A stretch of DNA of 64,000 nt from Candidatus Levyibacteriota bacterium. Lineage in GTDB: Bacteria; Patescibacteriota; Microgenomatia; Levybacterales; UBA12049. Location: NCBI GenBank assembly GCA_038253825.1, contig JBBSGT010000003.1:463-64462 (forward strand). Reading direction: 5' to 3'. Positions 14,050 through 39,849 of the stretch are shown piece after piece; positions within the stretch are counted from its first letter, which is position 1; each line of letters begins with the position of its first letter. Made by a program: the position numbers and the translations under genes. A model generated the notes under the pieces. The model saw only the letters and a program-made list of their open reading frames with translations, was not told where the DNA came from and made no database searches.

Positions 14050-14064
14050 ATAAAAAATGGGAGT

Positions 14065-16532: not shown

Positions 16533-16575
16533 CGCAAACCTAGTTTATCAGCTCATATTTTGCTAAAATAGAGTT

Positions 16576-18605: not shown

Positions 18606-18609
18606 AAAT

Positions 18610-19863
18610 ATGAAACAAGCAGCAAAAAAAGCATTAGAACATCCTTTGATTTATGGGAGTAGCATTATGGTTTTGGGTGGTTTATTGGCAAATGTTTTTA
18701 ATTTACTCTTTAGTTTATTTATGTACAAAAAATTATCTGTTCCTGATATGGGTATATTACAAAGTATTATAACGCTCATAACATTTCCCTCATTATTAGC
18801 CAATGCTGTTAATCCAGTAGTCGTTCGATCAGCAGGGGGTCTTTTTGCAAAAGGTGATTTATCTGCAGTCAGGGGATTATATATTCAATTTTCTAAGTTC
18901 CTTTTAATACTAGGTATACTAGGTTTCATAATTTTTTACTACTATCTACCGTCAATTGGAGACTTCTTTAAAATTAAAGATCACTTTATTTTAATTTTAG
19001 CAGATATAATAATGTTGCTTACACTTATGAGCATTATTAATATTGCTTTTCTCCAGGCGAAATTATCGTTTGGGACAACAGTTATCATTAATTTTATAAG
19101 TGCTTTTGCAAAATTACTTTTAGGTATAGGTTTTGTTCTCCTTGGTTATTCTCTTCATGGTGCTACTGGTTCTTTAGTTATATCAGCGGCATTATTATAT
19201 TTGCTAGGGTTTTTCCCCCTACGATTCATTTTTTTAAAGAAATTAATTACACCTAAAATTAATACAAAGGAGCTAATCGCTTACGGGATTCCTTCTGCGC
19301 TTACAGTTATCGGTTTAACTTCATTTATTTCAGCAGATATTTTGTTAACAAAACACTTTTTTGATCCCGTGAATGCAGGATTATATGCAGGCCTTTCACA
19401 AATCGGGCGAATAATCTTTTATTTAACGGGGCCAATTTGCGGTGTTATGTTTCCAATTATTGTTCGAAAGCATGCTGTTAAGGAGGATTTTAGTAATACT
19501 TTCAAACTTGCTTTACTTTTTATATTGATTCCATCTGTATTTATTTCTACTTTTTATTTTATTTTTCCAAATTTCACAATTTTATTCATCAGCAAAGCGA
19601 GCTACCTTGCCATAGCCCCATATTTAGGTGTCTTCGGGTTATATATATCGGCCTACTGTCTTCTTTATTTATTGGCTACTTTTTATCTTTCAATCAAAAA
19701 AACTAATATCTATTTCCCCATTTTAATAGGCGCTGTTTTGCAAATTGCTTTAATTATTGCGTACCATCAAAATATTGCACAAATTATCATGATATCATTT
19801 AGTATAGTCCTTTTACTTGTGATCGGTTTTTTGCTATATTATCCGTATGCAACAAAAAAATAA
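18610..19863 (+). CDS. Wzx-like flippase / polysaccharide biosynthesis membrane protein (MOP superfamily)
   Basis: 417 aa, about 12 TM helices, second such exporter in the locus. Confidence 0.55.
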   Translation: MKQAAKKALEHPLIYGSSIMVLGGLLANVFNLLFSLFMYKKLSVPDMGILQSIITLITFPSLLANAVNPVVVRSAGGLFAKGDLSAVRGLYIQFSKFLLILGILGFIIFYYYLPSIGDFFKIKDHFILILADIIMLLTLMSIINIAFLQAKLSFGTTVIINFISAFAKLLLGIGFVLLGYSLHGATGSLVISAALLYLLGFFPLRFIFLKKLITPKINTKELIAYGIPSALTVIGLTSFISADILLTKHFFDPVNAGLYAGLSQIGRIIFYLTGPICGVMFPIIVRKHAVKEDFSNTFKLALLFILIPSVFISTFYFIFPNFTILFISKASYLAIAPYLGVFGLYISAYCLLYLLATFYLSIKKTNIYFPILIGAVLQIALIIAYHQNIAQIIMISFSIVLLLVIGFLLYYPYATKK

Positions 19864-20647
19864 TTTTGGAATAAAACTCCTCTCGGTTGTAGTCCCAGCT
19901 TATAAGCAGGAAGAAACTATTATTAATGATATCAAAAATATTTCGTCAACATTAGATACATTAGGATTGCGATATGAAATTATTGTTGTAGTTGACGGTA
20001 TGCATGATAATACTTTTAAGCATGCATCCTCTCTTAAATCAAGGAATGTAAAAATAATAGGTTATGAAAAGAATCAAGGAAAAGGGCATGCAATCAGATA
20101 CGGTATGCTTCATGCAAATGGAGATGTTATCGGATTTATGGATGCAGGAATGGATATTCATCCGATGGGCATGAATATGCTCCTTAATCATATGGAATGG
20201 TACAATGCCGATATTATCGTAGGATCAAAACTTCATCCGGTATCCAAAGTTGATTATCCTCTTTATCGGACGGTTCTTTCATGGGGTTATCGGTTATTAA
20301 CAAAAATCCTTTTCGGTTTTCAGGTAAGAGATACTCAAGTAGGATTAAAATTTTTTAAACGGGTAGTAGTACGTGACGTTCTTCCTCGACTTGTTGTCAA
20401 ACGTTATGCATTTGATATAGAAATATTGGCAGTTGCCTATGCTTTGGGATATAAACGAATCTATGAAGCACCTGTCGAGATTAATTTTAAGCAAAATAAT
20501 ATTACTACCGGAAAGTTGGTAAATGTGATTAGTCTTATGGTTTGGGATACGATTGCTGTATTTTATCGATTAAGAATTTTAGGTTATTACCAAGTTCATA
20601 GAAAACATCTTACTCCAGAAGATATGTCACTTTCGTTATCAAGATGA
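19847..20647 (+). CDS. GT2 family glycosyltransferase, DPM1-like
   Basis: 'LSVVVPAYKQEETI...IIVVVDGMHDNT...FMDAGMDIHP', 266 aa. Confidence 0.75.
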   Translation: MQQKNNFGIKLLSVVVPAYKQEETIINDIKNISSTLDTLGLRYEIIVVVDGMHDNTFKHASSLKSRNVKIIGYEKNQGKGHAIRYGMLHANGDVIGFMDAGMDIHPMGMNMLLNHMEWYNADIIVGSKLHPVSKVDYPLYRTVLSWGYRLLTKILFGFQVRDTQVGLKFFKRVVVRDVLPRLVVKRYAFDIEILAVAYALGYKRIYEAPVEINFKQNNITTGKLVNVISLMVWDTIAVFYRLRILGYYQVHRKHLTPEDMSLSLSR

Positions 20648-21750
20648 CTATACTGATTCTAAATTGGCGAGATATTAAAAACCCTGCCGGAGGAGGAGCG
20701 GAAATCTTAACCCATGAATTGGCAAAACGATGGGTCAAACATGGTCATAGTGTCATGCAAATTAGTTCATCGTTTAAAATGGCAAAAACAAACGAAACTA
20801 TTGATGGGGTGCAATTTATTCGGAAAGGCACTTGGTGGACAGTGCAGATCTATGCGTATTTTTATTACAAGAAATATTTGAAGGATAAAACAGATATTAT
20901 AATTGACGAAGTTCATTGGTTTCCATTTTTTAGTTATTTATATGCCCCTAAAAAAACAGTTGCATTAATTTGTGAAGTTGCGAATAAACTTTTATATCAA
21001 ATTTTCCCATATCCTGTTGCACTCATGTGGCGGTTCATTGAAAAAATCTATTTAATTGCTTATCGAAATGTCCCGGCTATGGCTATCTCTCAATCGACCT
21101 ATGATGATTTAGTAGAGGAGGGGCATATTAAAAAAAATCTTATTGTTTTGCCAATGGGTTTAACGTTACCTGTAAAGATAAAACATTTTGCTAAAGAGAA
21201 AACACCTACGCTTATCTATGTGGCGCGTCTAAACAAACAAAAAGGATTATTTGATACAATTCAGGCCTTTGCATTAATAAAAAGCGAAATAAAAGAAGCG
21301 AAACTTTGGCTTGTTGGTTCAGGTGATCCAACAATAATTAATCAGGTTAAAAAGCAAATTACTTTGCATAAATTAGATGGAGCGGTAAAATTATTTGGCT
21401 TCGTCTCTGAAGAAAAAAAATTTGAACTTCTTTCGCGGGCACATATTCTTATGAGTGCTTCAGCACAGGAAGGCTGGGGGTTAACTGTCCCTGAAGCTGG
21501 TCTTACAAGAACACCGGCTGTCGTATATAATATTCAAGGATTTCGAGATATTATCCAAGATGGAAAAGAAGGTATGTTAGTTGACAAAAATCCTGGGGCA
21601 TTAGCAAACGGAGTTGTAGCATTATTAAATAAAAAAGAGTTATACAAAAAAATGCAGGATGCAGTAGAGAAGAAAGCCAAAAGTTTTTCTTGGGATACTT
21701 CAGCAGAAAAAAGTTTACAATTTATCAATTATTTCTTAGATAAAAAATAG
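20644..21750 (+). CDS. GT4 family glycosyltransferase
   Basis: 'SAQEGWGLTVPEAGLTRTPAVVYNIQGFRDIIQDGKEGMLV'. Confidence 0.8.
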   Translation: MTILILNWRDIKNPAGGGAEILTHELAKRWVKHGHSVMQISSSFKMAKTNETIDGVQFIRKGTWWTVQIYAYFYYKKYLKDKTDIIIDEVHWFPFFSYLYAPKKTVALICEVANKLLYQIFPYPVALMWRFIEKIYLIAYRNVPAMAISQSTYDDLVEEGHIKKNLIVLPMGLTLPVKIKHFAKEKTPTLIYVARLNKQKGLFDTIQAFALIKSEIKEAKLWLVGSGDPTIINQVKKQITLHKLDGAVKLFGFVSEEKKFELLSRAHILMSASAQEGWGLTVPEAGLTRTPAVVYNIQGFRDIIQDGKEGMLVDKNPGALANGVVALLNKKELYKKMQDAVEKKAKSFSWDTSAEKSLQFINYFLDKK

Positions 21751-24363
21751 GACTTTCGGGCATAATAATATATTTCATAACAAACAAAGAGTAATATGAG
21801 CCCCCATAAAACTCCAGAAAAAATTAAAGATAATTTATACACTTTATTAGGAAAATAATTTATTTCTGTTATCTTACCGTCATTGGCTATGAATGTCATA
21901 CCATATAAATCACTCATAAATTTAGTAGATGGTGTATTGCTCTGCCAATAGTCTCCATAGCTAAAATGATAAGTAAGATATTTAGCCGGTTTCATTACTG
22001 TCACCTTATCTTCTCCTACTATCGTATACTGCGTTTTTGATGAAATTTCACTTGGAGTATGGTTAAGAACAGTCATATGAGATAAATTAGTTTTAACATT
22101 CTTCTCTTCAGTTAGAAAGATTTTATCCGGTACCAGTACTAGCTGATCTATAACAGTAAAATGAGTATCCGGTTTTGTCAACGTAAGATACGATAAGGAA
22201 CGGTTACTGGTAACCGTTCCACCATATATCCATTGTAAATGGTTTTTTGTATCAAGAGGAATACTTTTTGTGGTATCTCCCAATGTAATAGTGAGATTGG
22301 CGAGGCCTGGGGCAGATAGAGCTTTTAAAAGTATTATATATCTTCCTGCGGCGAGAGAATGCCTTATATGCATCAATCCGGTTGTTTGTGATACAACTGA
22401 TCTGCCACTGGTAAATAACTCACCACTATTCTGAATATACGGCATTTTCGATGGTTCAAAGTTAGAAAAAATTTTATCATAATCCCATCCAGCTTTTAGT
22501 ATGTCGACATTATAATTATGTGCCAATCTCTCTGATGTCAATACAAGGGAAGGGTTGTCTGTATCAATAACTAAATCTTCTTTTTTTAGGATAGATAAAT
22601 CCTTTATTTCACTATTGACCATTTGATTGAGTAGAATTATTGGGCGAGTAGAGCCATTTTTATTATTTTTAGCAATGGTATTAAGATTCCCGATAGCGAA
22701 AATGGGTTTTTGGGTTAAGACTAAAGGACTAGCATGTTTATTTTCAAAGAAACTAAGAGTACTGTTTTTATATAATAATTGATAATCATTTTTGCTGTCA
22801 CTGAGCAGATCCGCTGCTTGTGTAGCAACTTCTTTTGCTGTGTCAAATTTTGTGAGAGAATTATCAGTAATCAAATATCTCACACCTAATGGAGTAAGAT
22901 AATGAGCATTATATGATTCAGTATAATTTTTATAGAGAAAGGCTGTTATCTGATTTGAGTAACTATCAGGATATGCTTCAGTACTAACTAATGGCAGCTC
23001 AAAGGGGATAAGCATATCAAAGACAGTACCTGATGAGAGCGGTAACGGATTGTTATACCATGAGTAAGCATTTATCCCTTGGAAGTCTGGAAGAGGAAAT
23101 ACTCTTCCTTCTTTTTTATTGCTTATATTAGTGGTGATAAAATCCTGAAGTTTACTATATGAATCAGGGATCATCGTTCTCTGAAGCGTAAAAATTCTCG
23201 GCACAGAAATATTTTTATAATTGACAAGTAAAATTATTACTAAAGAGATAGTAATGAAAACAATTTTCCACCATTTATTTATAACGGTTTTTGGAGTAAA
23301 ATCCGCAATAATAAGTGACATACATAATACTACCCCACCTAAAAAACGCGAAGGGTCTCTAAAGTAATGCATGAAAAAAAGATTTTGATATATCAATTTA
23401 CTAATGTTCTCTCCAGGAGTATGTAATCCTTTCGCTAAAAACAAAAAAATAAGCAAACAACTAAAGTAGAGCCAAGTGCGCTTTTTGTTAAAAATAAAAA
23501 GAATGAGTGTGATAGCTATAGGAATAAGCTGTAAGTATTCAAATGCTGTCCATGTAAATGTTGTGAAAGGATACCAGACAGTTTCAAGTCTGAGTACATT
23601 GTAAAGTTGGGATTGTGCACCATTAGATGCTACTGCATTGAGTGAAAAATATTGATTGGGCGCAGTAAATGTACGTTCTGGATAAAGGACGCTCGGCGAA
23701 ATATTATATAAGTTGAGCAATAGAAAGATGATCGTGGCTATGCAATAGAAGCTAAGTAATTTAGAAATATGAAAAAAATCTTTTCTTAATAATAAAGTCA
23801 GTAAATGAAAAAACTCCTGCCATAATTAAAAAATGCGGTTGGGCAAGAACAATGATTGATCCGAATAAGGCATAGAGTACTGACCAAAATGAAAGATTTT
23901 GCCAGGTAAACTGCTTTTGATCTGCAACCTTTAAGGGAATAGTAATTAAAAATGGCAATAAAGCATACACGATATTTAATTGCCAGTAACCCGAATAAAG
24001 TCTATCGATAATCCAAAGATTTCCACAAAAAAAAATTGCCCCAAGAATAATAAATACATTTATTTTTTTGACAAGTTTAAGTGCTAAAATAAATGTTATA
24101 AAAGATAAAAGAATGGTTATAAAAAAGTAAATATAATCCCAATTGTTCGGGAATAGTCTCTGGAAAGCGTATAATGAAGATAAGATTGGCAGTGTTCTTA
24201 AGCCTGAATCAGATCCCCATACGAAATCAGCAATTGGCCGGATGGGAATACCTTGCTGATACGCTCCTAGTTCTATAAGGCTGTTTGGAAGATTCCAAAG
24301 TCGTGTTAAAAGTATGAAGAAGTTATTACTTACAATGAATTCTCCAAATGCTAAAATGTCCAT
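21729..24363 (-). pseudogene. YfhO-like large GT-C membrane protein, split into two frames (200-aa N-terminal ORF 23761..24363 plus a 663-aa ORF) at or near an A7 homopolymer
   Basis: The two adjacent minus-strand ORFs are in different frames, and the downstream frame stays open back across the stop of the upstream one. An A7 run lies at 23772-23778. Together they reproduce the N-terminal TM region (GGDF-like loop) and the C-terminal 'GVRYLI...FSYGDYWQS' motifs of the intact paralogs at 32460 and 35769. This is either a frameshift pseudogene or an indel error. Confidence 0.45.
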
Positions 24364-24510
24364 AAATAAGGTAAATTCCTACGCAATATTGCAAAAAATA
24401 TAGAATAATAGTATCATAATTGCAGGTTTTAAAGTAGAGTAAGACTATATGTCTGCAGAATCTTCTTTCGTATCAATAATAATTTCAGTTTAGCAATTTG
24501 TAATAAAAAT

Positions 24511-25344
24511 ATGAATCAAAAACAAGAAAAAAAACCACTTATTACCATTGCAATTGCTACATATGATTCTGGTAACACAATAGAAAAATGTCTCAAATCG
24601 ATACAAAAACAAACATACCCCAATCTTGATATTATTGTTGTTGATAGTAAATATTACGATAAGTACAAACAAGAAGCTTGTAAAAAAATAATCACGAAGT
24701 ATGCTCGATATTTTAAAGATGGTCCTGAGCGAAGTATTCAACGTAACAGAGGAATAAAAGAAGCAAAAGGGGAATATATATTAATTATTGATCAGGATAT
24801 GTATTTGTCACCTAACGTTGCAGAAGATTGCCTGAATACATTGTTGAAAAATAACTGTCACGCCATATTAATCCCTGAAATTTCAATAGGTGAAGGGTAC
24901 TGGACTAAATGCGTGGCACTGGATCGCTATGTAACTACTTATTTGGAAGATGGAAAAAATGAATGTTGCAGATTTTTTAGTAAAAAGGATGCATTAGTAA
25001 TTGGTGGATATGATCCTACAATTGTTGGTGCCGAGGATGCTGATTTTCACTACCGCATGTCAAAATTAGGATATATAAAGAAAATAAAAAGTATTATTTA
25101 TCATGATGAAGGGGTTACAAAATTTTCTGCCCGTGTGAAAAAGAAATATTATTATAGTAAAGCATTTCGGAGATTTGTCCAGAGATATCCCGATGCAGCT
25201 ACTGCGCAGTTTTTCCCATTAAAGAAAGCCTATTTTAAGCACTGGAAATTATTCATTAAAGACCCACTAGTTACTTTAGGTATTATTACGCTTAGAACTG
25301 CTGAGGTCAGTGCTGGTATACTAGGGGTAATGATAAAAAAATAA
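24511..25344 (+). CDS. GT2 family glycosyltransferase
   Basis: 'ITIAIATYDSGNTIEKCLKSIQKQTYPNLDIIVVDS', 'IDQDM' and 'GAEDADFHYR'. Confidence 0.7.
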   Translation: MNQKQEKKPLITIAIATYDSGNTIEKCLKSIQKQTYPNLDIIVVDSKYYDKYKQEACKKIITKYARYFKDGPERSIQRNRGIKEAKGEYILIIDQDMYLSPNVAEDCLNTLLKNNCHAILIPEISIGEGYWTKCVALDRYVTTYLEDGKNECCRFFSKKDALVIGGYDPTIVGAEDADFHYRMSKLGYIKKIKSIIYHDEGVTKFSARVKKKYYYSKAFRRFVQRYPDAATAQFFPLKKAYFKHWKLFIKDPLVTLGIITLRTAEVSAGILGVMIKK

Positions 25345-25345
25345 T

Positions 25346-26272
25346 ATGAGCACAATTTCACTAAAAAATAAAAGAGTTCTTATAACAGGAATCAGCGGTT
25401 TTGTTGGTATGCACTTAGCCCGAGCTGTAGAGAAAAAAGGTGCTAAAGTATTTGGAATATCAAGATCTAAAGAAAATTTAACAATTTTTAGATCTAACGT
25501 TATAGACTTTTCAAAAATAAATGAAATTATCAAAAAGAACAAGATAGAAATATGTTTTCATTTAGCGGCAGAATCTCTTGTGGAATCTGGACAAAGTGAT
25601 CCATATCAGACATTTAAGATTAATATAATAGGAACACTTAATCTGCTCGAAAGTGCGCGAATTAATAAACTAGAGAAAATAATTATTGCTTCAACATCTC
25701 ATGTTTATGGTAATAATCCTGTGCCGTATAAGGAGGATTACCCTCCGAAACCATCACGTCCCTATGAAACATCAAAGACATGTGTTGATCTCATTGCACA
25801 GTCATATGCAGATACATTTAATTTGCCTGTTCTTATTCCTAGGTTCAGCAATACGTATGGACCAGGTGATACGAATTTTAATCGTTTAATTCCGAAAACA
25901 ATACAAAGTGTTCTACATAATGAAGCACCCAAAATGTGGGGAGGAGATGCATTGAGAGATTACATTTATATTGATGACGTTGTCGATGCATACATAAAAC
26001 TTGCAGAGATACCTTCAGCCACAATTGAAAAAAATAGAATTTTCAACTTCGGTACAGGAACGACAATATCGGTAAAAGATGTTATTGCAAAAATCATTGA
26101 CGTTGCAAATGCAAATTTAAAAATAGAAACTAATAATGAAGTAAGATCCTTAGAAATTAGCGAACAATTTGTATCTTCCGAAAAAGCAAATCGTATAATC
26201 AAGTGGAAACCACAAGTAACTTTTGATGCAGGAATTGTAAACGCTATTGCTTGGTATAAGGCAAATAGTTAG
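25346..26272 (+). CDS. NAD-dependent sugar epimerase/dehydratase/reductase (extended SDR)
   Basis: 'VLITGISGFVGMHLA' Rossmann motif and the catalytic YETSK. 308 aa, so shorter than typical 4,6-dehydratases and more like an epimerase/reductase. Confidence 0.75.
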   Translation: MSTISLKNKRVLITGISGFVGMHLARAVEKKGAKVFGISRSKENLTIFRSNVIDFSKINEIIKKNKIEICFHLAAESLVESGQSDPYQTFKINIIGTLNLLESARINKLEKIIIASTSHVYGNNPVPYKEDYPPKPSRPYETSKTCVDLIAQSYADTFNLPVLIPRFSNTYGPGDTNFNRLIPKTIQSVLHNEAPKMWGGDALRDYIYIDDVVDAYIKLAEIPSATIEKNRIFNFGTGTTISVKDVIAKIIDVANANLKIETNNEVRSLEISEQFVSSEKANRIIKWKPQVTFDAGIVNAIAWYKANS

Positions 26273-26322
26273 AAATAGTTCTATGTTGCTTTTGGACTGC
26301 TGTCTCTATATAATTTAGTTAC

Positions 26323-27498
26323 ATGATTAAGCTTATTAAATCAACCTTTTATAATGAAAAAGATACAAAGAAGAAATTGGTCGACTTCATAAATACGACG
26401 GAAATGATGAGTTTTGGTCCTCAATGTAATACCTTTGAAGAAAAATTTGCAAAATGGCAAGGACGGAAACATTGTATATTTCTTAACAGTGGTAGTTCAG
26501 CAAATCTTGCTATCGTCCAAGCCTTAATTAATTTAGGCAAAATAAAACAAGGAAATAAAGTCGGATTTTCTCGCCTCACATGGTCAACCAACGTCATGCC
26601 ACTGATTGAATTAAGTTTGGAAGCTGTGCCAATTGATGTAGAAATCGATACACTTAATGTTTCAAGTGCCAAACTTCGTGAGATACTAAAACGCCACACC
26701 CTCGAGATGGTATTTCTTACTAATTTGCTGGGCTTTTGTGATGATATTGATGAGATTAAAAAAATTTGTGATGAAGAAAAAATAATCCTGATTGAAGATA
26801 ATTGCGAATCTCTCGGGACTGTTTATAAAAAGAAGAAACTTGGGAACTACGGCCTCGCAAGTACCTTCTCGTTTTATGTTGGCCATCATATGTCCACAAT
26901 TGAAGGTGGAGCAGTATGTACTGACAGTGAACAACTCGCCACTATGTTGCGAATTGTTCGAGCACATGGATGGGATAGAAATCTTAGTGAAAAGCGTCAA
27001 ACAAAATTGCGAAGCAAACATAAAGTTAATTCAACATTTTACTCTCGCTATACATTCTATGATCTAGGCTATAATTTAAGACCCACAGAAATTAATGGTT
27101 TCATCGGGAATACGCAGGTACAGTATCTTGATGAAATTGTCAAAAAAAGAGAGGAGAACTTTATGCAAATTGCAAAGGCAATTTATTCACAATCGGATAA
27201 ATTTTATCCTGTCCGATATGATCACATTGATGTCTTATCAAATTTTGCGTTTCCGGTTGTTTGTAAAACAAAAAAAATTCGGGATGAATTAGTAGACAAA
27301 TGTAACGGAAAAATTGAATTGCGGCCAATTGTGGGCGGTGATATGACTAAACAACCATTCTTCCAAAAGCATGTAAAACGCTTCAAGTTATCTAAATCAA
27401 ATGCGGCGCTGATTCATGAGCAAGGACTTTATTTTGGAAACAATCCAGATTTGACCGAAAAAGACAAAGAAGAAATTTTCGCAATTTTTGCAAAATAG
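26323..27498 (+). CDS. DegT/DnrJ/EryC1 family PLP/PMP enzyme with His replacing the Schiff-base Lys (sugar 3-dehydratase-like, ColD/E1 type)
   Basis: N-terminal 'FEEKFAKWQGRKHCIFLNSGSSANLAI' is typical of the family. The active-site segment 'SFYVGHHMSTIEGG' aligns with 'SFHAIKNITCAEGG' of the aminotransferases, with His at the Lys position, which is the hallmark of 3-dehydratases. Confidence 0.65.
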   Translation: MIKLIKSTFYNEKDTKKKLVDFINTTEMMSFGPQCNTFEEKFAKWQGRKHCIFLNSGSSANLAIVQALINLGKIKQGNKVGFSRLTWSTNVMPLIELSLEAVPIDVEIDTLNVSSAKLREILKRHTLEMVFLTNLLGFCDDIDEIKKICDEEKIILIEDNCESLGTVYKKKKLGNYGLASTFSFYVGHHMSTIEGGAVCTDSEQLATMLRIVRAHGWDRNLSEKRQTKLRSKHKVNSTFYSRYTFYDLGYNLRPTEINGFIGNTQVQYLDEIVKKREENFMQIAKAIYSQSDKFYPVRYDHIDVLSNFAFPVVCKTKKIRDELVDKCNGKIELRPIVGGDMTKQPFFQKHVKRFKLSKSNAALIHEQGLYFGNNPDLTEKDKEEIFAIFAK

Positions 27499-27502
27499 AT
27501 GT

Positions 27503-28669
27503 ATGAAAATTGGTGTACTGATCGACAGAATGAATGTCGGAGGGGTTGAAAAAATTGCGATAGAACAAGTCAGAGCCCTTCGTGAAATTGGTGAAGATGC
27601 CTATTTAGTTATCCTTCATGAAAGTGCCGTCGTTGAAAATGCTTTCCCAGATTTAGTAAAAACAATTCCTATTATTTATCTCGATCAAAGGGTTAGTAAA
27701 CCTCTCCGTCTTTCTTTTCAATTTCCCGTCTTTCATTTTTTTTCATCATTTCATTTGACCTATCCATTTATCATTCCTTTTGCTTTGAAGAAAAAAGAGT
27801 TTGATTACTTCATTGTTCATGGAACGTATACCGCCTTTTCTGCAATAATGATTAAAAAAATTGCTAAAATTCCATTTTCAGTTTTTATTTGGGATCCGAT
27901 TGATTATATTTTGGGAAGAATGTATGCAAATAACTTTTTAGCACCTGTTCTTGCCATCTTACATGCACTGGCACGCTTTTTGGATGCACTTATCTTAAAG
28001 AATACAGATGCGATTCTTGTCGGAGGAGATGCTCATGATAATTATCTCAAAAAAATTGCACCGCAAACACCAATAATTACTATTCCTCCTTCAGTCCATC
28101 CGTTGAAAAAACTTACTGCGAAAAAGAAAAATTATATTCTTATGGTTACAGCTTGGAAGGAAGGAAAGAATCCAGAATATATTTTCGGACTACTAAAAGC
28201 ATATCCAAAGTTCGCTGTTGTTATGGCAGGAAAATGGCTTGATCCAAATCTTCTTAAGGTATTCCAAAAAAATGTTAAAGTTAGCGGTTTTACTAAACAA
28301 ATAACAGTCACTGGTCAACTTTCCGAAGGACAATTGACCCAATACTATTCAGAAGCACTCTTTTTATTACAGACAAACGACGACCGGGGATTTGGCCTTC
28401 CTGCGTTGGAAGCTGCAGGACATGGAACTACTTTTCTTATTCCGAGAGGACAAGGGGTTTGTAATTTATTTACAAACGGTACTCATGGTTACTATGTTAA
28501 AGAACATGATACAAATACTATTGTAAAAAAGATTAGCGACTTATACGAAGATAAAGAAAAAGCAAAAAAAATGGGTAAGCTAGCTTGGGGAAAAGTTATT
28601 AAGAATTACAGTTGGCGGCAACATGCCGTAAAATTAGTTAATCTAGCAAAGCGATATGAAAAAAAATAG
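27503..28669 (+). CDS. GT4 family glycosyltransferase
   Basis: Start 'MKIGVLIDRMNVGGVEK', C-terminal 'GFGLPALEAAGHGT' region. Confidence 0.7.
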   Translation: MKIGVLIDRMNVGGVEKIAIEQVRALREIGEDAYLVILHESAVVENAFPDLVKTIPIIYLDQRVSKPLRLSFQFPVFHFFSSFHLTYPFIIPFALKKKEFDYFIVHGTYTAFSAIMIKKIAKIPFSVFIWDPIDYILGRMYANNFLAPVLAILHALARFLDALILKNTDAILVGGDAHDNYLKKIAPQTPIITIPPSVHPLKKLTAKKKNYILMVTAWKEGKNPEYIFGLLKAYPKFAVVMAGKWLDPNLLKVFQKNVKVSGFTKQITVTGQLSEGQLTQYYSEALFLLQTNDDRGFGLPALEAAGHGTTFLIPRGQGVCNLFTNGTHGYYVKEHDTNTIVKKISDLYEDKEKAKKMGKLAWGKVIKNYSWRQHAVKLVNLAKRYEKK

Positions 28670-29681
28670 TCCACTTATCTCAATAATAATTGTTAACTGG
28701 AACGGAAAAAAATGGTTAAAGACATGTCTTGATTCTTTAGCAAAACAAACATATAAAAATTTTGAGATATTGTTCGTCGATAATGCATCAAATGATGATA
28801 GTGTGGAATATGTGAAAAAAATGTATCCACATGTAGCCATTTTGCAAACAGGGAGTAATTCAGGATTTGCAGGCGGAAATAATTACGGTCTGAAAAGAGC
28901 AAAGGGAGAATATATTTTACTTCTTAATAACGATACAGCTGCCCCAAAAGATCTGCTAAAAAAATTACTTAAGGGATTTGAAGAATTTCCAAATGCTGGC
29001 TGTATTCAGCCAAAGATGGTGTTACTTGATGATCCATACAAAATTGATTCAGTTGGATCGTATTGGACTGATACATCGTTTCTTTATTATTATGGTTTGG
29101 GCAAGAATTCTGAATTAGCAAAATATAATAAATCAATGCAATTTTTTTCAAACAAAGGGGCATGTGTTATGATTCCGAAAGATATAACCGACAAGATAGG
29201 ACTTTTTGATGAGGATTTTTGGTGCTATTACGAAGAAACAGATTTTTGTCATCGTGTATGGCTTGTAGGCTATGAGTGTTGGTACTATCCCAAAACAATA
29301 ATTTATCACGCAGGCGGCGGAACAGCATTACGCTTTGATAACAGTTTTATCCAATTTCATAATTTCAAAAATAAATTGATGAGTTTTCTCAAAAACTTTG
29401 AAACCGGCAATTTATTTATGATCATTCCTATTTATATTTTTTTAAATATTGTTATTAGTTTTATTTGGTTATTCCAAGGAAAACTCAAACATTTCCTAGC
29501 TCTTTACCAAGCAATTGGTTGGAATATCATGCATTTTAGTAGCACACAAAAGAAACGAAAACAGATACAATCAATTCGGAAAAAAACTGATGCACAAATA
29601 TTTTCTATAACGAAGAAGAACCCAACATTCTCATATTACATCACACTTTTAAGAGGTAATACCGAAACTTATACAGATTAA
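28656..29681 (+). CDS. GT2 family glycosyltransferase with C-terminal TM helix
   Basis: 'ISIIIVNWNGKKWLKTCLDSLAKQTYKNFEILFVDNASNDDS', 'NNDT' and 'YYEETDFCHR'. Confidence 0.75.
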   Translation: MKKNSPLISIIIVNWNGKKWLKTCLDSLAKQTYKNFEILFVDNASNDDSVEYVKKMYPHVAILQTGSNSGFAGGNNYGLKRAKGEYILLLNNDTAAPKDLLKKLLKGFEEFPNAGCIQPKMVLLDDPYKIDSVGSYWTDTSFLYYYGLGKNSELAKYNKSMQFFSNKGACVMIPKDITDKIGLFDEDFWCYYEETDFCHRVWLVGYECWYYPKTIIYHAGGGTALRFDNSFIQFHNFKNKLMSFLKNFETGNLFMIIPIYIFLNIVISFIWLFQGKLKHFLALYQAIGWNIMHFSSTQKKRKQIQSIRKKTDAQIFSITKKNPTFSYYITLLRGNTETYTD

Positions 29682-29690
29682 TTTTTGATT

Positions 29691-30188
29691 ATGAGTAGAC
29701 AAATATTTTTTGATAAATTTTTTCATGGATGGCTCTATATTACGAGTGTATTTCCCAATGTCTATAGAGGATGGTTATTGAAATTGCGATCAGAAAAAGT
29801 AGGGAATGGATTACGTATTGATAAAGATTGCCTTTTTTATCATACGAGTAAATTAAAAATTGGTAATAACGTCTGGATAGGTCGACGTGCGTTTATTTCT
29901 GCAAGAGGAGGTCTAAGCATCGGTGATGATTCGTTGATTGCTTTTGATTCAGTCATATTAACAGAACATCATATTTATAAAAAGGGTGTCTTAATAAGAA
30001 CAACCGGTTTTTCTATAAAGCCTACTGTTATCGGAAATAATGTATTAATAGGTGCAAAAGCTGTGGTGATGCCGGGTGTAAAAATTGGAGACAACGTCGT
30101 AATTGGAATAAATAGTGTTGTAACAAAAAATATCCCATCAGGAAGTATTGCAGCAGGGGTTCCTGCGAAGATCATTAAAAAATGGTAA
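29691..30188 (+). CDS. Hexapeptide-repeat (LbH) sugar O-acetyltransferase
   Basis: Repeated [LIV]GxxxxI hexapeptides (IGNNVWIG...IGDDSLIA...IGNNVLIGAKAVVMPGVKIGDNVVIG). The ATG at 29691 is preferred over the TTG at 29685 used by the ORF track. Confidence 0.7.
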   Translation: MSRQIFFDKFFHGWLYITSVFPNVYRGWLLKLRSEKVGNGLRIDKDCLFYHTSKLKIGNNVWIGRRAFISARGGLSIGDDSLIAFDSVILTEHHIYKKGVLIRTTGFSIKPTVIGNNVLIGAKAVVMPGVKIGDNVVIGINSVVTKNIPSGSIAAGVPAKIIKKW

Positions 30189-31828
30189 ATAAGAGGTTAA
30201 GGAATTATACATATCTTTATCTCACTTCATTAGGAGTAACAATTCTTCTCTATTGGAGGCTTTTTCTCACGTTTTATCAACAAGATGAATGGCAAGCATT
30301 AGGACATTTCAGTGCTCTTGGTTGGAAAGCCATAGGTGAAAATTTAACCCCACTTGATTTACTTTTGGCAAAGGGTCGACTGCTAACTGTAGGTATTTAT
30401 GACTTAATTTTTACGTATGAGCCATATGGCGTCATAACTATTTCAATAATAACTATTCTTCTTCATGCATTAAACGGATTTTTAATTTTTCTTTTGATGC
30501 AAAAAATTTTCAAGAAGAAAATAATCAGTATATTCGCATCGCTCTTTTTTCTGACAAATGCTGTTGCAAATCAAGCTGTGATTTGGTCGGGAGCATCAAT
30601 TGCAATTATCGGCAGCACTACATGTGTCCTCTTATCTATGAGTTATTTTCTCTCATTTTTAGAAAATGAAAAGTATCGTGATTATATTCTTTCATTTCTC
30701 TTTCTTTTTATATCACTACAATTTAAAGAAAGTGCATTGGCAATTATTCCATTTTTTGTTGCCTTTGCTTTTTTTTTGAAATGGAAAATATTACCAAAGA
30801 AGTTTTATCTTATTTCACTTATTCCGCTCATTTACTTCATCCTTTTTCTTACTCTACGTGTTGGAGGATCTTTGGCATCAACACAAAAAGTTGGAGACTA
30901 TGTGAACCAATCACATAACGTAAAAGTAGTAATCGTCGCAAATGGGATAACTTATTTCGTGACCAGTGTTGCACAAATATTTTTCCCTGCTGATTTTATT
31001 TATCCCCTTGCTACCAAATTTTTAAAGGCAGAATATCAATCGTTGTCTGTTAATCCTCAGTTTGATCTTATTTCCCAAACAGTTATAACGGATATGATAA
31101 ATACTCTTGTTAGTCTTCTCTTTCTTGGTTTATTATTTATGTGCGCAATCTGCCGAAAGCAATTAACGCTGTTGTGGTTTTTTCTTGGAATTCTTGCAGT
31201 TACGTTACTTCCTTATATTATTATTCAACGAGGAAGTTCCTATCTCGAATCACGTTATTACTATTTACTATTGGTACCGATATGTGGTTTCTTGGGAATT
31301 ATCTTAACTGCATTTATAAAGTTCAAACAGAAACTTTATTTTATCGCTTTTTCTGTTTTTCTACTTCTATTAATTTCCTCATATGTATTACTAGACCAAA
31401 AAGAGTTGATAAAACAACAGAATTTAGCAGAAACCAGGATTGCGATTCTTCATACTATAAAACAAGAAGTACCATCACTTCAAAAAAAGACTGTTTTTTA
31501 TATTCAAAGTGATCAATCTTATATTCTTCCAACAAATCCACTACCCTTTCAAGAAGGCATAGGGTACACTTTTTTAGAATATCTTCATAATACAAATAGC
31601 AAAATGCTTGATGCACTTCTGATTAATAACTTCTTGTGGGATATAGGTACACAAGGATACAAAACTATTGATGGCTATGGTTATGGTCTCTTTACAGATA
31701 AGTATACTATAGAGAATGCATTAAAGGAAAAAAAGTTTACAAAAGATGCTATTATAGTATTCTACTGGGATAGTAAAAAACAGAAATTACGGAATATAAC
31801 AAAATCGTATCATATAAATAGCCACTAA
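30182..31828 (+). CDS. Polytopic membrane protein, GT-C-like (DE-motif loop)
   Basis: 548 aa, 'FYQQDEWQALGHF' acidic loop after TM1, then more than 10 TM helices and a C-terminal soluble domain. Confidence 0.4.
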   Translation: MVNKRLRNYTYLYLTSLGVTILLYWRLFLTFYQQDEWQALGHFSALGWKAIGENLTPLDLLLAKGRLLTVGIYDLIFTYEPYGVITISIITILLHALNGFLIFLLMQKIFKKKIISIFASLFFLTNAVANQAVIWSGASIAIIGSTTCVLLSMSYFLSFLENEKYRDYILSFLFLFISLQFKESALAIIPFFVAFAFFLKWKILPKKFYLISLIPLIYFILFLTLRVGGSLASTQKVGDYVNQSHNVKVVIVANGITYFVTSVAQIFFPADFIYPLATKFLKAEYQSLSVNPQFDLISQTVITDMINTLVSLLFLGLLFMCAICRKQLTLLWFFLGILAVTLLPYIIIQRGSSYLESRYYYLLLVPICGFLGIILTAFIKFKQKLYFIAFSVFLLLLISSYVLLDQKELIKQQNLAETRIAILHTIKQEVPSLQKKTVFYIQSDQSYILPTNPLPFQEGIGYTFLEYLHNTNSKMLDALLINNFLWDIGTQGYKTIDGYGYGLFTDKYTIENALKEKKFTKDAIIVFYWDSKKQKLRNITKSYHINSH

Positions 31829-31830
31829 TT

Positions 31831-32484
31831 ATGAAGAATACATATAACAATTACTTTAAAGATCACTATAAAAGTACCCATTCAGAGAAAGATATTCTAA
31901 ATTATCAAAAGTGGTTTTATGCGCAATGGCAATTTATTAACTCTAAAATAAATATAAAGGCGCAAAGTAATATTTTAGAAATTGGTTCCGCAATGGGGGG
32001 CTTTTATTCATATTTAGAGTCAAAAAACCCCAATTATTTAGGAGTAGAATTAGATAAGAGTATGGTTGATTTTACTACAAAGTATTTTCAAAAACAAATT
32101 TTTATGAAAAAAAGTATCGAAAGTTTGAAAATAGAAAAGCGATATGATTATGTTTTTGCTTTTGAAGTACTTGAACACTTAGAGAATCCGCTAACAACCG
32201 TTGGAAAAATACATAAATTACTTAATAAGGATAGTATTTTTTGCGGATCCACCCCATATCCTTTTTATAAGAATATTGTAAACGATCAAACTCATTTATA
32301 TGTTTTACATCCAAAAAGCTGGGAAAGAATATTTCTTTTAAACGGTTTTAAAGAAGTTAATTTATATCCAATGTCTTTCCCTCCCTATTTATGGAGAATC
32401 AATAAAAGGCTAAATATAACAATGCCTTTTTTTGTCCCATTTACTCATTTTGTTTCAACATGTTTAATAATAGCAAAAAAATAA
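31831..32484 (+). CDS. Class I SAM-dependent methyltransferase
   Basis: 'ILEIGSAMGGF' motif I and 'FAFEVLEHLENP' post-motif II acidic segment, 217 aa. Confidence 0.6.
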   Translation: MKNTYNNYFKDHYKSTHSEKDILNYQKWFYAQWQFINSKINIKAQSNILEIGSAMGGFYSYLESKNPNYLGVELDKSMVDFTTKYFQKQIFMKKSIESLKIEKRYDYVFAFEVLEHLENPLTTVGKIHKLLNKDSIFCGSTPYPFYKNIVNDQTHLYVLHPKSWERIFLLNGFKEVNLYPMSFPPYLWRINKRLNITMPFFVPFTHFVSTCLIIAKK

Positions 32485-34769
32485 TAATTCTTATCAATTT
32501 TTTTATAATACTTCTAATTATCGCTCTTCCTTATTATCTTTTTGGAGGCAAATTATATATTGGGGGAGACGATACTCGCTTACTCTATGTCTATCCCTGG
32601 GAATTTCTAAAAAATATTTCATTTTTTTCTTGGTATAATTTTTCTTCAGTTGGTTCTTTTAACCCAAACCAATTTACAGTACCATTCACAGTAATTTGGT
32701 CCCTATTGGAACAATTTATAAAATCTAAAATTATTGTAGATTATTTTTCCTTTTCATTACCTTTACTTTTAGGATATATTTATTTCCAAAAACTACTAAG
32801 TGAAATACTTATGACTAAGAGGTATAAGCCTGAAATAATCATCGGAGGTCTCATGTATATTTTTTCACCGATTCTTATTCTTAATCAGTTATCTGTGTTC
32901 CTCTATTCAGTATGGTTAATCGCCTTACTACCGATTATCAGTTATTATTTCCTTCGATATCTGCGATTTGAACAAAAGGCAGATATTCTCAAAGTGTCAT
33001 TGTATAGTGTATGGTTATCGCTTGCACTTTTTTCTATCCCATGGTTATTAGGGTTTGTTCTACCGGTTGGAGCAGGATTGCTTTTTTCTGTTAGATTATA
33101 TAAAAAAAGGGAAATAATTTATTTTATAAAAAAATCACTTGTCTTTTTCATTTTTGTTGTTTTTTTACAGCTATTCTGGTTATTACCTTTTAGTATGACA
33201 TTCCTTGGTGGTGGAAGTAATAGTTTTGGGGGAAATGTGTTGTCGCAACGTGCGGCAGATACATTCAGTGCGACTGTGCTTTCTACTGCAAGTGGAAATG
33301 TGCTATTTCCTTTTATAAATTTATTTCATCGACAAATTGCTTTTGATTACAATTGGGGACTAAAAAGTGTATATGAAGGTTTCTATGACAAAGTGCTTTT
33401 TATTAATGTTATTTATATTTTGCTTTTTTTTGGAGGAGTATTTTTTGCCAAAAATATATTGAATAAAACGGAAATCAGAAAATTTATCACCTTTCTTATA
33501 GCATTTATATTTTCTCTCTTCTTATTTACTGTAAATATCGGTCCTTTAAAACAAGTATTTCTCTGGCTTGGTTTTATACCAGGAATGGTGATGTTTAGAA
33601 ATTTCTATGATAAATTTGCATTGGGTTATACCTTGCTCTTTGCCTTAGTTATGACATATTCTCTTGTAATAATTGGAAAGCGTTTTCCTCAACACAGATA
33701 TCTTTTTGCGTGCATTACCAGCCTTATTATTTTCCTGAACTTTATACCTATTAAGGATACAATTGTTCGACCTTTATGGAAAACAGCAGATATTTATTCT
33801 AATATTAGCATCCCAACTGAATATACAAATTTCATGTATTCTGTTTCGACTTCAGTTCCTGCATCATCAAATATGCTTACTCTACCTTACAATATAGCAG
33901 CCTATTCAATCATCAAGGATACGAACTCCGATAATGTTTTTGCCGGGACGTCTCCTGTTAAAATATTTTCGGGTATAAATGATTTCTCCGGGTATTTATC
34001 TTTTCCTGCATATGAAGCAGGAGATGTTGATAAATATTTTAAAGATAGAGATTATAAAAATTTGCAAGTAATATTTAGAAAATATAATATTTCCTACTTA
34101 TTCGTAACAAAGAATGTCCCTCAAGAGGTGAAAGACTCTTATTTATTTAACAAAACAGCTCTACTTTCTCAGGATGACAATTTTATTCGTGCCATAACAG
34201 ATAAAAAATTACTCACCAGCGCTTCAAATAACTATGAATTGTATTCACTTAAGCAAAAACAAAGTACGTTGCAACCGCAAAATGTTACTTACATTAAAAT
34301 TAATCCTGCTACGTATCAACTACATATATCACATATGAAATTTAAGCAGAACCTTATCTTTCTTGATTCATATCATAAACAATGGAAACTCTACCCATCA
34401 GTCTACCAAAATCGTACTTGGTGTAAAGGCGTTTATCCAACCTCAAAAAATCATCAAGAATGTATTAGTAATCTTACGCTATTTAACAGTAATGTTTTAT
34501 CATTTTTCTTTCAAAACCCACTTTTTACTAACACACATATAATTTATAATCAGCGAAATAATCAGTGGACTATCGATGAGCAAACAATAAAAACATTAGG
34601 AAATGCTTATTATAAAAATAATTCGGATGGTACTATTGATGCGGAATTTATACTCTACTTTTTGCCCCAATCGTATTTTTATTTGGGTGCAATAATCAGT
34701 ATACTTACAATAATTATTTTATCCTTGATTGTGTCTAAACAGCAAAAATCCTATGAGAATATTTTATAG
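32460..34769 (+). CDS. YfhO-like large GT-C membrane protein (paralog family)
   Basis: 769 aa. N-terminal loop 'YIGGDDTRLLYVYPWEF', about 13 TM helices, a large extracytoplasmic domain, 'FLDSYHKQWKLYPSV' in the C-terminal region, and a final TM helix. Confidence 0.45.
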   Translation: MFNNSKKIIILINFFIILLIIALPYYLFGGKLYIGGDDTRLLYVYPWEFLKNISFFSWYNFSSVGSFNPNQFTVPFTVIWSLLEQFIKSKIIVDYFSFSLPLLLGYIYFQKLLSEILMTKRYKPEIIIGGLMYIFSPILILNQLSVFLYSVWLIALLPIISYYFLRYLRFEQKADILKVSLYSVWLSLALFSIPWLLGFVLPVGAGLLFSVRLYKKREIIYFIKKSLVFFIFVVFLQLFWLLPFSMTFLGGGSNSFGGNVLSQRAADTFSATVLSTASGNVLFPFINLFHRQIAFDYNWGLKSVYEGFYDKVLFINVIYILLFFGGVFFAKNILNKTEIRKFITFLIAFIFSLFLFTVNIGPLKQVFLWLGFIPGMVMFRNFYDKFALGYTLLFALVMTYSLVIIGKRFPQHRYLFACITSLIIFLNFIPIKDTIVRPLWKTADIYSNISIPTEYTNFMYSVSTSVPASSNMLTLPYNIAAYSIIKDTNSDNVFAGTSPVKIFSGINDFSGYLSFPAYEAGDVDKYFKDRDYKNLQVIFRKYNISYLFVTKNVPQEVKDSYLFNKTALLSQDDNFIRAITDKKLLTSASNNYELYSLKQKQSTLQPQNVTYIKINPATYQLHISHMKFKQNLIFLDSYHKQWKLYPSVYQNRTWCKGVYPTSKNHQECISNLTLFNSNVLSFFFQNPLFTNTHIIYNQRNNQWTIDEQTIKTLGNAYYKNNSDGTIDAEFILYFLPQSYFYLGAIISILTIIILSLIVSKQQKSYENIL

Positions 34770-35772
34770 AAAATTAGTTATTAATAACTGGACTATTTAT
34801 TTTATTATTCCTATTATTCTATTCCTTTTTGGGGCAGTGAATACATTATTATTAGTATCACCTTTAAGTTTTTCACTTCTTACATATACACAAAAGCCGG
34901 AAATTATTCATATATCTACAAATAATCTATTACTGGAAGGAGAGAATTTTACAGAGCGAATCACAGCGAAGGAAAATAATTTAGGAATTATTGCTATCAG
35001 CTTTTTTAATCCAAACACTATAGCATATTCAGATGAAGATCAACTGGCATTTACTATAAAAGATGTTGCTGTAAATAAAATAGTATACAAAAATTCCTAT
35101 CGTTCGGGACTTTTAACAAGTCTAAAATATTTTCCATTCGGTTTTCCTAAAATAGCTGATTCCAAGAATAAACAATACCAAATCAGTATTGTTTCGCTCA
35201 AGGGAAATACGAATAACGCTTTGCGTATAGATAACAATGCTTTCATAAATCAAGTAAGTTATGATTATTCCAAAAGCGAGATAATAGGAAGTCCTACGAA
35301 ATTTCTATCATTCATAGCCAAAAAGGTCGCTCTTATCTTTAATGATAACCAAATAATGTTTATTACTCTTGAATACTTCATACCTTTATTATTTTATTGT
35401 AGTTTTCTCATTCTCAATAGGAGAGGAAAGACGAATCCGTATATCGCAGAGGTAGTTCTTCTTAGTATCATTCTATACGATATATTTTTAATTGTCCCAC
35501 TTTATACTCTTGTGCTATTTATAATACTTATTATATGGATAGTTCTTGCTATTTGGGATCGGCTCGATAGTTCCGTTAGCTATCTTTTTGCATGTATTCT
35601 CTTTATAATAGCATTGGTTATCCAAAGTGTTCAGTTCATCTCCATAGCAAATAAAGCGTCGGTGTGGGCATTCTTTTTTCTTGTCATTGGAACGGTACAA
35701 TTTCTGAAAGAACTCTCCGGTAAAGAAAAGAAGCGTATAAATATGATTGAATTTATTCAGCATTTGCGATGA
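34753..35772 (+). CDS. Membrane protein (N-terminal TM, extracytoplasmic domain, C-terminal TM bundle), unknown function
   Basis: About 340 aa, translationally coupled between two YfhO-like genes. No recognisable motif. Confidence 0.35.
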   Translation: MRIFYRKLVINNWTIYFIIPIILFLFGAVNTLLLVSPLSFSLLTYTQKPEIIHISTNNLLLEGENFTERITAKENNLGIIAISFFNPNTIAYSDEDQLAFTIKDVAVNKIVYKNSYRSGLLTSLKYFPFGFPKIADSKNKQYQISIVSLKGNTNNALRIDNNAFINQVSYDYSKSEIIGSPTKFLSFIAKKVALIFNDNQIMFITLEYFIPLLFYCSFLILNRRGKTNPYIAEVVLLSIILYDIFLIVPLYTLVLFIILIIWIVLAIWDRLDSSVSYLFACILFIIALVIQSVQFISIANKASVWAFFFLVIGTVQFLKELSGKEKKRINMIEFIQHLR

Positions 35773-37793: not shown

Positions 37794-38002
37794 AACCACA
37801 AGACATAGCATTTATTATAATATTATTACTTTTTCTTTGGAGAAGAAATCCAAAGTATTTACTCATGACAGCGCTTGCCTGTTTTGTTCTGGCAATTCCG
37901 TTATTTCATTTTCTCGTTTTTTTCACTGCAGAACGGCTTGTTATGTATGCCGCGGGATTTTTGATAGTAGCAATATTCTTGTTACTATATAAGCAAAAAT
38001 AA
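37790..38002 (+). CDS. Small 2-TM membrane protein (hypothetical)
   Basis: About 70 aa from the ATG at 37790, which overlaps the upstream stop (ATGA). Hydrophobic. Confidence 0.3.
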   Translation: MKPQDIAFIIILLLFLWRRNPKYLLMTALACFVLAIPLFHFLVFFTAERLVMYAAGFLIVAIFLLLYKQK

Positions 38003-39741: not shown

Positions 39742-39849
39742 AGAGAAAGAGGTTAATAATCTTTTCTTTTGAACCGTTTGCTCCTTTTCCCACTATTTTT
39801 CGATAAATAGATTTGTTGTTTTCGGAGACAACATGGTACAATTATCGGT

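Follow-up and report, generated by a model that had tools for sequence, protein, structure and literature searches.

A putative ColD-type sugar 3-dehydratase gene and an adjacent Thr-Ser-His short-chain dehydrogenase gene in a glycosylation island of a Candidatus Levyibacteriota bacterium

3,6-Dideoxyhexoses such as colitose, abequose, tyvelose, paratose, and ascarylose are mainly known from Gram-negative O-antigens and from nematode ascarosides. ColD (WbdK) of Escherichia coli O55 (PDB 2gms, 2r0t, 3b8x, 3gr9) is a GDP-4-keto-6-deoxy-D-mannose 3-dehydratase of 388–390 aa with the fold of the DegT family, in which a histidine (His188) replaces the lysine that forms the Schiff base with pyridoxal 5'-phosphate (PLP) in sugar aminotransferases. 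E1 (RfbH/DdhC/AscC) of Yersinia pseudotuberculosis, the CDP-6-deoxy-L-threo-D-glycero-4-hexulose 3-dehydrase (PDB 3bcx, 3bb8), shares this fold and the His-for-Lys replacement, but depends on the reductase E3 and additionally has a C-x-C-x3-C-x3-C iron-sulfur (Fe-S) site ('CYCAPGCDNTC'). GDP-perosamine synthase (Per; PDB 3bn1, 3dr4), which also has this fold, retains the Schiff-base lysine. The mechanisms of ColD and of E1/SpnQ have been reviewed, and SpnQ-type enzymes carry an Fe-S motif (PMC8987622). Here, we analyze a stretch of 64,000 nucleotides from a Candidatus Levyibacteriota bacterium (GCA_038253825.1, contig JBBSGT010000003.1, positions 463 to 64,462), referred to as the window, whose gene at 26323..27498 (+) quite probably encodes a ColD-type sugar 3-dehydratase that depends on pyridoxamine 5'-phosphate (PMP) and has the DegT/aspartate aminotransferase fold. 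Directly upstream lies a gene for a short-chain dehydrogenase/reductase (SDR; 25346..26272, +) with an unusual active-site signature.

The open reading frame (ORF) of the ColD-like gene is intact, starting with ATG and specifying 391 aa without internal stops, and residues 13–387 match the Pfam family DegT_DnrJ_EryC1 (PF01041) with 211 bits. An identical protein (100%) from a Candidatus Levyibacteriota metagenome-assembled genome (MAG; GCA_050997215.1) is present at NCBI, where it is labeled as 'DegT/DnrJ/EryC1/StrS family aminotransferase'. The initial annotation had proposed that a histidine takes the place of the Schiff-base lysine, and the alignments bear this out. In phmmer alignments to PDB chains, the first histidine of the active-site motif SFYVGHHMSTIEGG (26869..26910, +) is His188 (codon 26884..26886) and shares its column with His188 of ColD, where the aminotransferases have their lysine; that both proteins have the number 188 here is a coincidence. 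The window segment FYVGHHMSTIEGG and its ColD counterpart FYSHHIATMEGG align without gaps. Furthermore, three DegT aminotransferases of the Lys type, encoded in related loci, align their lysines to this column. In an alignment of 147 representatives of clusters at 50% identity together with ColD and E1, column 188 is occupied by histidine in all 146 non-gap sequences, so that a chance substitution is excluded and His-for-Lys is a trait of the family. The preceding residue is small, Gly187 in the window protein and Ser187 in ColD, and the same alignment has Gly in 81, Ser in 44, and Ala in 20 sequences at this column. As in ColD, a second histidine follows, the cofactor-binding residues are conserved, and equivalents of the pyrophosphate-binding Arg219 and Arg334, which are common to E1 too, are present. 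D159, E162, S183, R219, and R334 are kept in at least 90% of the aligned sequences. Moreover, 62 close relatives (73–87% identity) show no variation at His188, His189, Glu194-Gly-Gly, and the cofactor-binding residues, which indicates strong purifying selection on a dehydratase-type site.

Similarity searches place the protein in the same group. Its best phmmer matches in the PDB are ColD/WbdK (199 bits, E 7e-58), E1 (145 bits), and 9wvy, a putative NDP-4-keto-6-deoxyglucose 3-dehydratase (109 bits), whereas no true aminotransferase exceeds 92 bits; the best of these, GDP-perosamine synthase (91–92 bits), aligns over the N-terminal half only. The AlphaFold2 model (pLDDT 82.5) retrieves ColD chains as top PDB matches in Foldseek (E ~1e-25), followed by E1 and by GDP-perosamine synthase as the best Lys-type enzyme, with TM scores of 0.78–0.80 to both ColD and E1. 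In a neighbor-joining tree (no bootstrap), E1 branches off basally and the Lys-type enzymes lie outside, and the window protein groups with homologs from loci L012 (Saccharibacteria), L018, and L022. The fusion proteins described below and ColD of E. coli are spread over other sub-clades within this radiation. The membership in the PMP-dependent 3-dehydratases that had been suggested from the histidine is thus supported by scores and tree alike. The alignment to ColD and E1 has no lysine of the window protein at the catalytic column, the tree does not place it among the aminotransferases, and we rejected the assignment as a true DegT sugar aminotransferase because His188 occupies the Schiff-base column and the Lys-type enzymes form the outgroup.

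A Lys-less DegT enzyme could nevertheless mainly transaminate in vivo, yielding a 4-amino sugar, or could have lost its activity. ColD itself runs a transamination half-reaction with glutamate (PMC8987622), and in loci L003 and L056 the ColD-like gene clusters with genes for a Lys-type DegT protein and an acetyltransferase. We consider this the least probable of the explanations weighed here and highly improbable, however, given the invariance of the catalytic and cofactor-binding residues in the 62 relatives and the fact that all characterized His-type members are 3-dehydratases (PMC8987622). Residue 187 also speaks against it: at the active-site spot, mutant chains of ColD in the PDB have SNH (H188N), SKH (H188K), and NKH (S187N/H188K), and according to the title of PDB 3gr9 the last of these exchanges converted ColD to an aminotransferase, but Asn never occurs at this position in the family of the window protein.

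The colitose/ascarylose-type label that had been attached to the gene finds no support in its ascarylose/E1 part. Residues 214–250 of the window protein (AHGWDRNLSEKRQTKLRSKHKVNSTFYSRYTFYDLGY; 26962..27072, +) are the counterpart of the E1 segment with the four cysteines of the unusual [2Fe-2S] site; there, RDCYCAPGCDNTCKKRF of E1 aligns to 'DRNLSEK--RQTKLRS'. This segment contains no cysteine in the window protein and none in ColD, but four in E1. The four-Cys motif is likewise absent from all 147 cluster representatives, among which no intact one has three or more cysteines in the segment; the two representatives with three look like frame-shifted fragments. The NCBIfam equivalog model for RfbH (NF011936) gives 211.3 bits for the window protein, about half of its cut-off of 423. 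Since the cysteine motif is missing and the RfbH score stays below the cut-off, the protein is of the ColD type and not of the E1 type. An E3 partner was not found: among the approximately 47 longer ORFs of the window searched with Pfam, a scan that did not include the 1016-aa ORF at 44092..47142, a single flavin reductase-like protein appeared, a ferric-reductase homolog (53749..55047) located 26 kb away. A motif scan of the window also revealed no RfbF-like gene, and for this combination of reasons the E1/ascarylose-type assignment was rejected.

If the enzyme works like ColD, PMP and an NDP-4-keto-6-deoxyhexose would be joined as a Schiff base through the C4 keto group of the sugar, and His188, at the position of the aminotransferase Schiff-base lysine, would then take the C4' proton of the cofactor, upon which the 3-hydroxyl group would be expelled. 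Hydrolysis of the resulting enamine would yield an NDP-4-keto-3,6-dideoxyhexose and ammonia, and PLP would be re-aminated by glutamate without any iron-sulfur cluster or reductase partner. The 3-deoxygenation of a 4-keto-6-deoxyhexose thereby predicted would be shared with E1. The product would be turned into a 3,6-dideoxyhexose for the glycan-assembly island of this Levyibacteriota genome.

Which nucleotide sugar serves as substrate was approached via gene contexts. From genome and metagenome collections, we gathered 47 related loci, each flanked by at least 5 kb, and typed the neighboring genes by tblastn against reference sequences that had been checked with NCBIfam. Like ColD, which is encoded together with the GDP-mannose 4,6-dehydratase (GMD) and the Fcl-like SDR ColC, relatives have this gene triad; at 35–85% identity to the window protein, they are typically accompanied by GMD, an Fcl/ColC-like SDR, an Rmd ortholog, or ManC together with PMM (phosphomannomutase). 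Among the six loci whose ColD-like protein is 35–45% identical to that of the window, four contain an Fcl/ColC-like SDR, four a GMD, and one an RfbF-like gene. At 45–66% identity (11 loci), the counts are ten for the Fcl/ColC-like SDR, eight for GMD, three for RmlA-like genes, two for RfbF-like genes, and one for ManC, and at 66% identity or more (30 loci) they are 12 for the Fcl/ColC-like SDR, three for GMD, four for ManC, three for PMM, and four for an Rmd ortholog. In most cases, the Fcl/ColC-like SDR gene comes immediately after the ColD-like gene. In L012, whose ColD-like protein is 76% identical, the gene adjoins a GMD (TIGR01472, 404 bits) and an Rmd ortholog (191 bits to PDB 2pk3), and in L002, L007, and L010 both ManC and PMM are encoded nearby. 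In addition, gene fusions link the same functions, as P0208 combines a GMD (448 bits) and P0200 and P0265 an Fcl-like SDR with a ColD-like domain. These neighbors and fusions of relatives point to GDP-4-keto-6-deoxy-D-mannose, and we regard such a GDP-mannose-derived substrate as moderately likely for the window enzyme. The simplest reading would be that the whole Fe-S-free radiation, including the window protein, acts on this compound. The sole sugar nucleotidyltransferase of the window is consistent with it: a scan for the GGxGxR motif retrieved only the ManC-like mannose-1-phosphate guanylyltransferase (59924..61009, +; 361 aa), which has the PF00483 and ManC_GMP_beta-helix domains but no phosphomannose isomerase domain, and which reaches 217 bits with TIGR01479 (cut-off 373). 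This gene and the adjacent SDR gene, both invoked initially as parts of a GDP-4-keto-6-deoxyhexose route, are indeed present as described.

The SDR gene ends 50 nt upstream of the ColD-like gene and encodes an orphan extended SDR of 308 aa, a candidate 4,6-dehydratase or 4-ketoreductase. It shares the extended SDR fold and the Yx3K motif with GMD, CDP-glucose 4,6-dehydratase, RmlB, and Rmd (2pk3). Its active-site signature, however, is Ser116-Thr117-Ser118-His119 followed by Tyr140-x3-Lys144, with the motif STSHVYG at 25691..25711. His119 is invariant in 82 relatives of the SDR and occupies the position at which RmlB, GMD, and CDP-glucose 4,6-dehydratases have their Glu/Lys base. As the published signatures of 4,6-dehydratases are restricted to [ST]DE in RmlB, [ST]DK in CDP-glucose 4,6-dehydratase, and [ST]SE in GMD (PMC8987622, Table 1), the combination Thr-Ser-His is non-canonical. 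The segment 'FGISRS' after strand beta-2 corresponds to the NADP-type 'GxSR' motif of GMD and Rmd, and the region 'N-T-Y-G-P-G-D..F.R.IP' resembles the RmlB/CDP-dehydratase type.

All curated NCBIfam models remain far below their cut-offs for this SDR. The top match is CDP-glucose 4,6-dehydratase (153 bits, cut-off 278); the GMD model gives 71 versus 415 bits and the Fcl model (NF047922) 60 versus 500 bits. A classification as ColC/Fcl-like, as considered in the initial annotation, therefore had to be abandoned on account of the latter score and of STSHVYG instead of 'SSC(I/V)YP'; the true Fcl-like neighbors of the relatives reach 217–249 bits. Nor is the protein a clear Rmd or RfbS-type reductase. 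Rmd (2pk3) was the top match of the single sequence in the PDB with 113 bits, followed by an archaeal RmlB with 107 bits, but the true Rmd ortholog of L012 scores 191 bits. A profile built from the 82 relatives matched dTDP-glucose 4,6-dehydratase best (155 bits), ahead of UDP-glucose 4-epimerase (147 bits), Rmd in sixth place (137 bits), and CDP-glucose 4,6-dehydratase (117 bits), and Foldseek searches with the AlphaFold2 model (pLDDT 88.6) were no more decisive; over these three approaches, epimerases, dehydratases, a decarboxylase, and Rmd scored alike. The closest relative in a comparable context, 37% identical, is a dehydratase-type SDR with the signature 'SSDK', whose gene in L083 is flanked by an RfbF-like and an RmlC-like gene.

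Several observations weigh against the assignment as a ColD-type enzyme with a GDP-linked substrate. In the window and the 6 and 9 kb past its ends (L059–L061; ~80 kb altogether), no canonical GMD, Fcl/ColC-like SDR, Rmd, PMM, or RfbF was found, and without the first four of these the pathway is incomplete as seen. The ManC-like gene lies 32 kb from the ColD-like gene, and the identity of the ColD-like protein to E. coli ColD is only 33.5%. Other features of the loci would rather fit a CDP-linked pathway, in which the SDR would be a CDP-glucose 4,6-dehydratase and the His enzyme would perform the E1 reaction by the ColD mechanism, without Fe-S cluster and E3, to give paratose- or tyvelose-type products. 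The best NCBIfam match of the SDR and its resemblance to the 'SSDK' protein of L083 agree with this, as do the automatic JGI/KEGG names of the SDR and ColD-like pair ('CDP-glucose 4,6-dehydratase' and 'E1'). Furthermore, in L018, L058, and L076–L080 the next gene after the ColD-like one encodes a CDP-tyvelose-2-epimerase-like SDR, and RfbF-like genes occur within 10 kb in four of the 47 loci (L022, L083, L094, L100) and in a shorter fifth locus (L092). The CDP-linked pathway nonetheless appears unlikely. No cytidylyltransferase is encoded in the window or its flanks, where the only nucleotidyltransferase is ManC-like, and the SDR misses the cut-off of the CDP-dehydratase model and lacks the [ST]DK signature (PMC8987622, Table 1). 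L083 has its own RfbF and 'SSDK' dehydratase module besides a Thr-Ser-His SDR, so that the two SDRs probably differ in substrate, and the closest relative with an informative context, L012, has its ColD-like gene beside GMD and Rmd. As a separate observation, the CDP-tyvelose-2-epimerase-like SDRs, which belong to Levyibacteriota relatives (L018:11182–12249, L058:10151–11221, also L076 and L078–L080), contain 'STNKVYG' and have Phe at the expected catalytic Tyr of the Yx3K motif ('LFGASK').

Even less probable is a substrate linked to dTDP or UDP, that is, 3-dehydration of a 4-keto-6-deoxy- or 2,6-dideoxyhexose in a SpnQ-type pathway. The match to PDB 9wvy and the profile of the SDR family, which scores best against dTDP-glucose 4,6-dehydratases, could be explained in this way, and RmlA-like genes are located near the ColD-like gene in L022–L024, and L005 contains an FdtA/B/C module. 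Yet the Fe-S motif of SpnQ-type enzymes (PMC8987622) is absent from the window protein, the motif scan detected no RmlA in the window, and the loci with RmlA-like genes also have GMD and an Fcl-like gene right beside the ColD-like gene. The GDP-4-keto-6-deoxyhexose route proposed at the outset is the best supported one through the contexts and fusions of relatives, although the distance of manC and the looser attachment of the SDR gene to the ColD-like gene, described in the following, fit it less well.

For a GDP-linked route via GDP-4-keto-6-deoxy-D-mannose, the adjacent SDR probably supplies either the 4,6-dehydratase or the final 4-ketoreductase step. Within 10 kb of ColD-like genes, GMD was found in 15 loci and the Thr-Ser-His SDR in six, but never both together. 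This mutual exclusion is suggestive, but not statistically strong and confounded by phylogeny. In L018 and L083, which combine the SDR with Fcl-like and ColD-like genes, and in L057, which contains the SDR, a GME-like protein, and another SDR without a ColD-like gene, no protein but the Thr-Ser-His SDR qualifies as a candidate for the first dehydration, an obligatory step. On the other hand, it is present in only five of the 30 close ColD-like loci, which weighs against a tight link of the two genes. A glycosyltransferase family 2 (GT2) gene for ~275 aa always directly precedes it (in the window, L018, L056, L057, L058, and L083), and the SDR is thus tied more tightly to this upstream GT2 than to the ColD-like gene. 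The SDR type as such is widespread in genomes of the candidate phyla radiation (CPR), with more than 120 clusters at 57–70% identity. By rough estimate, the chance that the SDR is a 4,6-dehydratase may be put a little short of even; a role as 4-ketoreductase is possible but clearly less probable, and some other function has a slightly smaller chance still. If it were the dehydratase, the window would be left without an obvious 4-ketoreductase, and if it were the reductase, the dehydratase would have to be encoded elsewhere. The earlier statement that no 4,6-dehydratase is obvious in the window accordingly stands insofar as no canonical GMD was found, but may be wrong as the adjacent SDR is the best candidate. 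The second SDR of the window (16576..17556) was rejected for this function, because it is a GalE (TIGR01179, 416 bits with a cut-off of 262).

Taken one step further, CPR bacteria (Levyibacteriota and relatives) might produce a GDP-linked 3,6-dideoxyhexose for glycans of the cell surface via a non-canonical route, in which the Thr-Ser-His SDR replaces GMD, possibly also performs the final 4-keto reduction, and feeds the ColD-type 3-dehydratase. We put this forward as a tentative and rather doubtful proposal.

The family to which the window enzyme belongs is large. More than 120 clusters (at the 90% identity level) are 73–87% identical to it and derive from MAGs of Levyibacteriota, Saccharimonadales, and others; JGI/KEGG labels several of these relatives as 'CDP-6-deoxy-D-xylo-4-hexulose-3-dehydrase' or 'E1'. 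At the 50% identity level, 655 clusters were retrieved with E<=1e-30, and about 130 of them outscore E. coli ColD. Some homologs outside the window (P0175, P0188, P0196, P0219, and P0123) carry inteins inside catalytic motifs. In the first four, inserts of 440–495 aa are located directly after 'GHHMS', three residues beyond the catalytic histidine (equivalent to 26893..26898 in the window); the insert of P0175, the only one of the four that was scanned, has an Intein_splicing domain (63 bits) and a LAGLIDADG domain. P0123 has an insert of 265 aa between Asn160 and Cys161 of the PMP-binding motif 'EDNCES' (equivalent to 26797..26805), with an Intein_splicing match of 31 bits that is under the gathering score of 35.8 bits. 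ColD-like genes at 62–77% identity are also contained in MAG records labeled as Gammaproteobacteria (one of them a 1.6-Mb chromosome), Limnocylindrales, and Pseudomonadales (L011/L003, OZ246394.1; L015; L017; L019). L011 and L015 share synteny with the window, including GalE (57–73%), a 417-aa Wzx-like protein (53–57%), and GT2 (66–69%). Either these glycan clusters move as a whole between phyla, or the bins are mislabeled.

The ColD-like gene is part of a tightly packed run on the plus strand. It is opened by the GT2 gene mentioned above (24511..25344, +; 277 aa), identified with Pfam and NCBIfam, whose stop lies 1 nt before the start of the SDR gene. Downstream, a glycosyltransferase family 4 (GT4) gene (27488..28669, +) overlaps the ColD-like gene by 11 nt, a further GT2 gene (28656..29681, +) overlaps GT4 by 14 nt, and a hexapeptide O-acetyltransferase gene (29685..30188, +) follows after a gap of 3 nt; these three genes (27488..30188) are probably co-transcribed, and their products would use or modify the sugar. 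Membrane protein and methyltransferase genes are located further downstream in the run. A scan for promoters and terminators around the operon yielded counts at chance level.

The run is embedded in a glycosylation island of ~60 kb (1..61700) that encodes more than 20 glycosyltransferases (GT2/GT4) and an initiating phosphoglycosyltransferase. The product of the ColD-like enzyme would, given this location, most likely be a donor sugar for a surface glycan. The island also encodes four PMT_2/ArnT-like membrane proteins (2263..5420, 14065..15675, and others), a Wzx-like flippase (7834..9294), a PfkB kinase (48657..49598), ManC together with a polyprenyl-phosphate sugar transferase (59924..61680), an MptA/B-like protein, two hexapeptide acetyltransferases, and a methyltransferase. 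Its G+C content is 30–33% at 28–40 kb and 38–41% from 40 kb on, and this shift suggests a mosaic origin; the low-G+C part includes several large ORFs without Pfam match (32460..39741). The ferric-reductase/NOX-like membrane flavoprotein already mentioned (53749..55047, −; Ferric_reduct, FAD_binding_8, and NAD_binding_1) adjoins the gene of a 623-aa protein with a dockerin type I domain (55144..57015, +); in a reduced CPR genome, either one is unusual. An ORF of 177 aa (40840..41373) comprises the N-terminal half of a GT4 only (Glyco_transf_4) and is followed by a complete GT4 gene. As L005 and L006 have a Glyco_transf_4-only gene, 177 aa as called and cut by the locus end, at the corresponding spot, this ORF may be a conserved split gene instead of a pseudogene.

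In comparison to the described systems, the window protein thus differs from E. coli ColD by its low identity, its placement in another sub-clade within a large radiation, the lack of GMD and ColC alongside, and its host, a CPR bacterium instead of a Gram-negative O-antigen producer. Judged from its sequence, it is best filed as a distant member of the ColD family in a new host lineage. The annotation is corrected accordingly, from 'aminotransferase' at NCBI and 'E1' at JGI/KEGG to a ColD-type enzyme. As the enzyme class, its mechanism, and the pathway logic are already well established, this finding is incremental, and the Thr-Ser-His SDR is the less ordinary item of the locus. If the non-canonical route were confirmed, the SDR would represent a class of 4,6-dehydratases for sugars that has not been described before, and the pathway would be the first for a 3,6-dideoxyhexose in Patescibacteria; literature searches on colitose or dideoxyhexoses in Patescibacteria or Saccharibacteria retrieved no relevant report. 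Beyond the single locus, the very large ColD-type family in uncultured Patescibacteria, with its more than 120 clusters of at least 73% identity, suggests that the surfaces of these ultra-small episymbionts may commonly bear 3,6-dideoxyhexoses.

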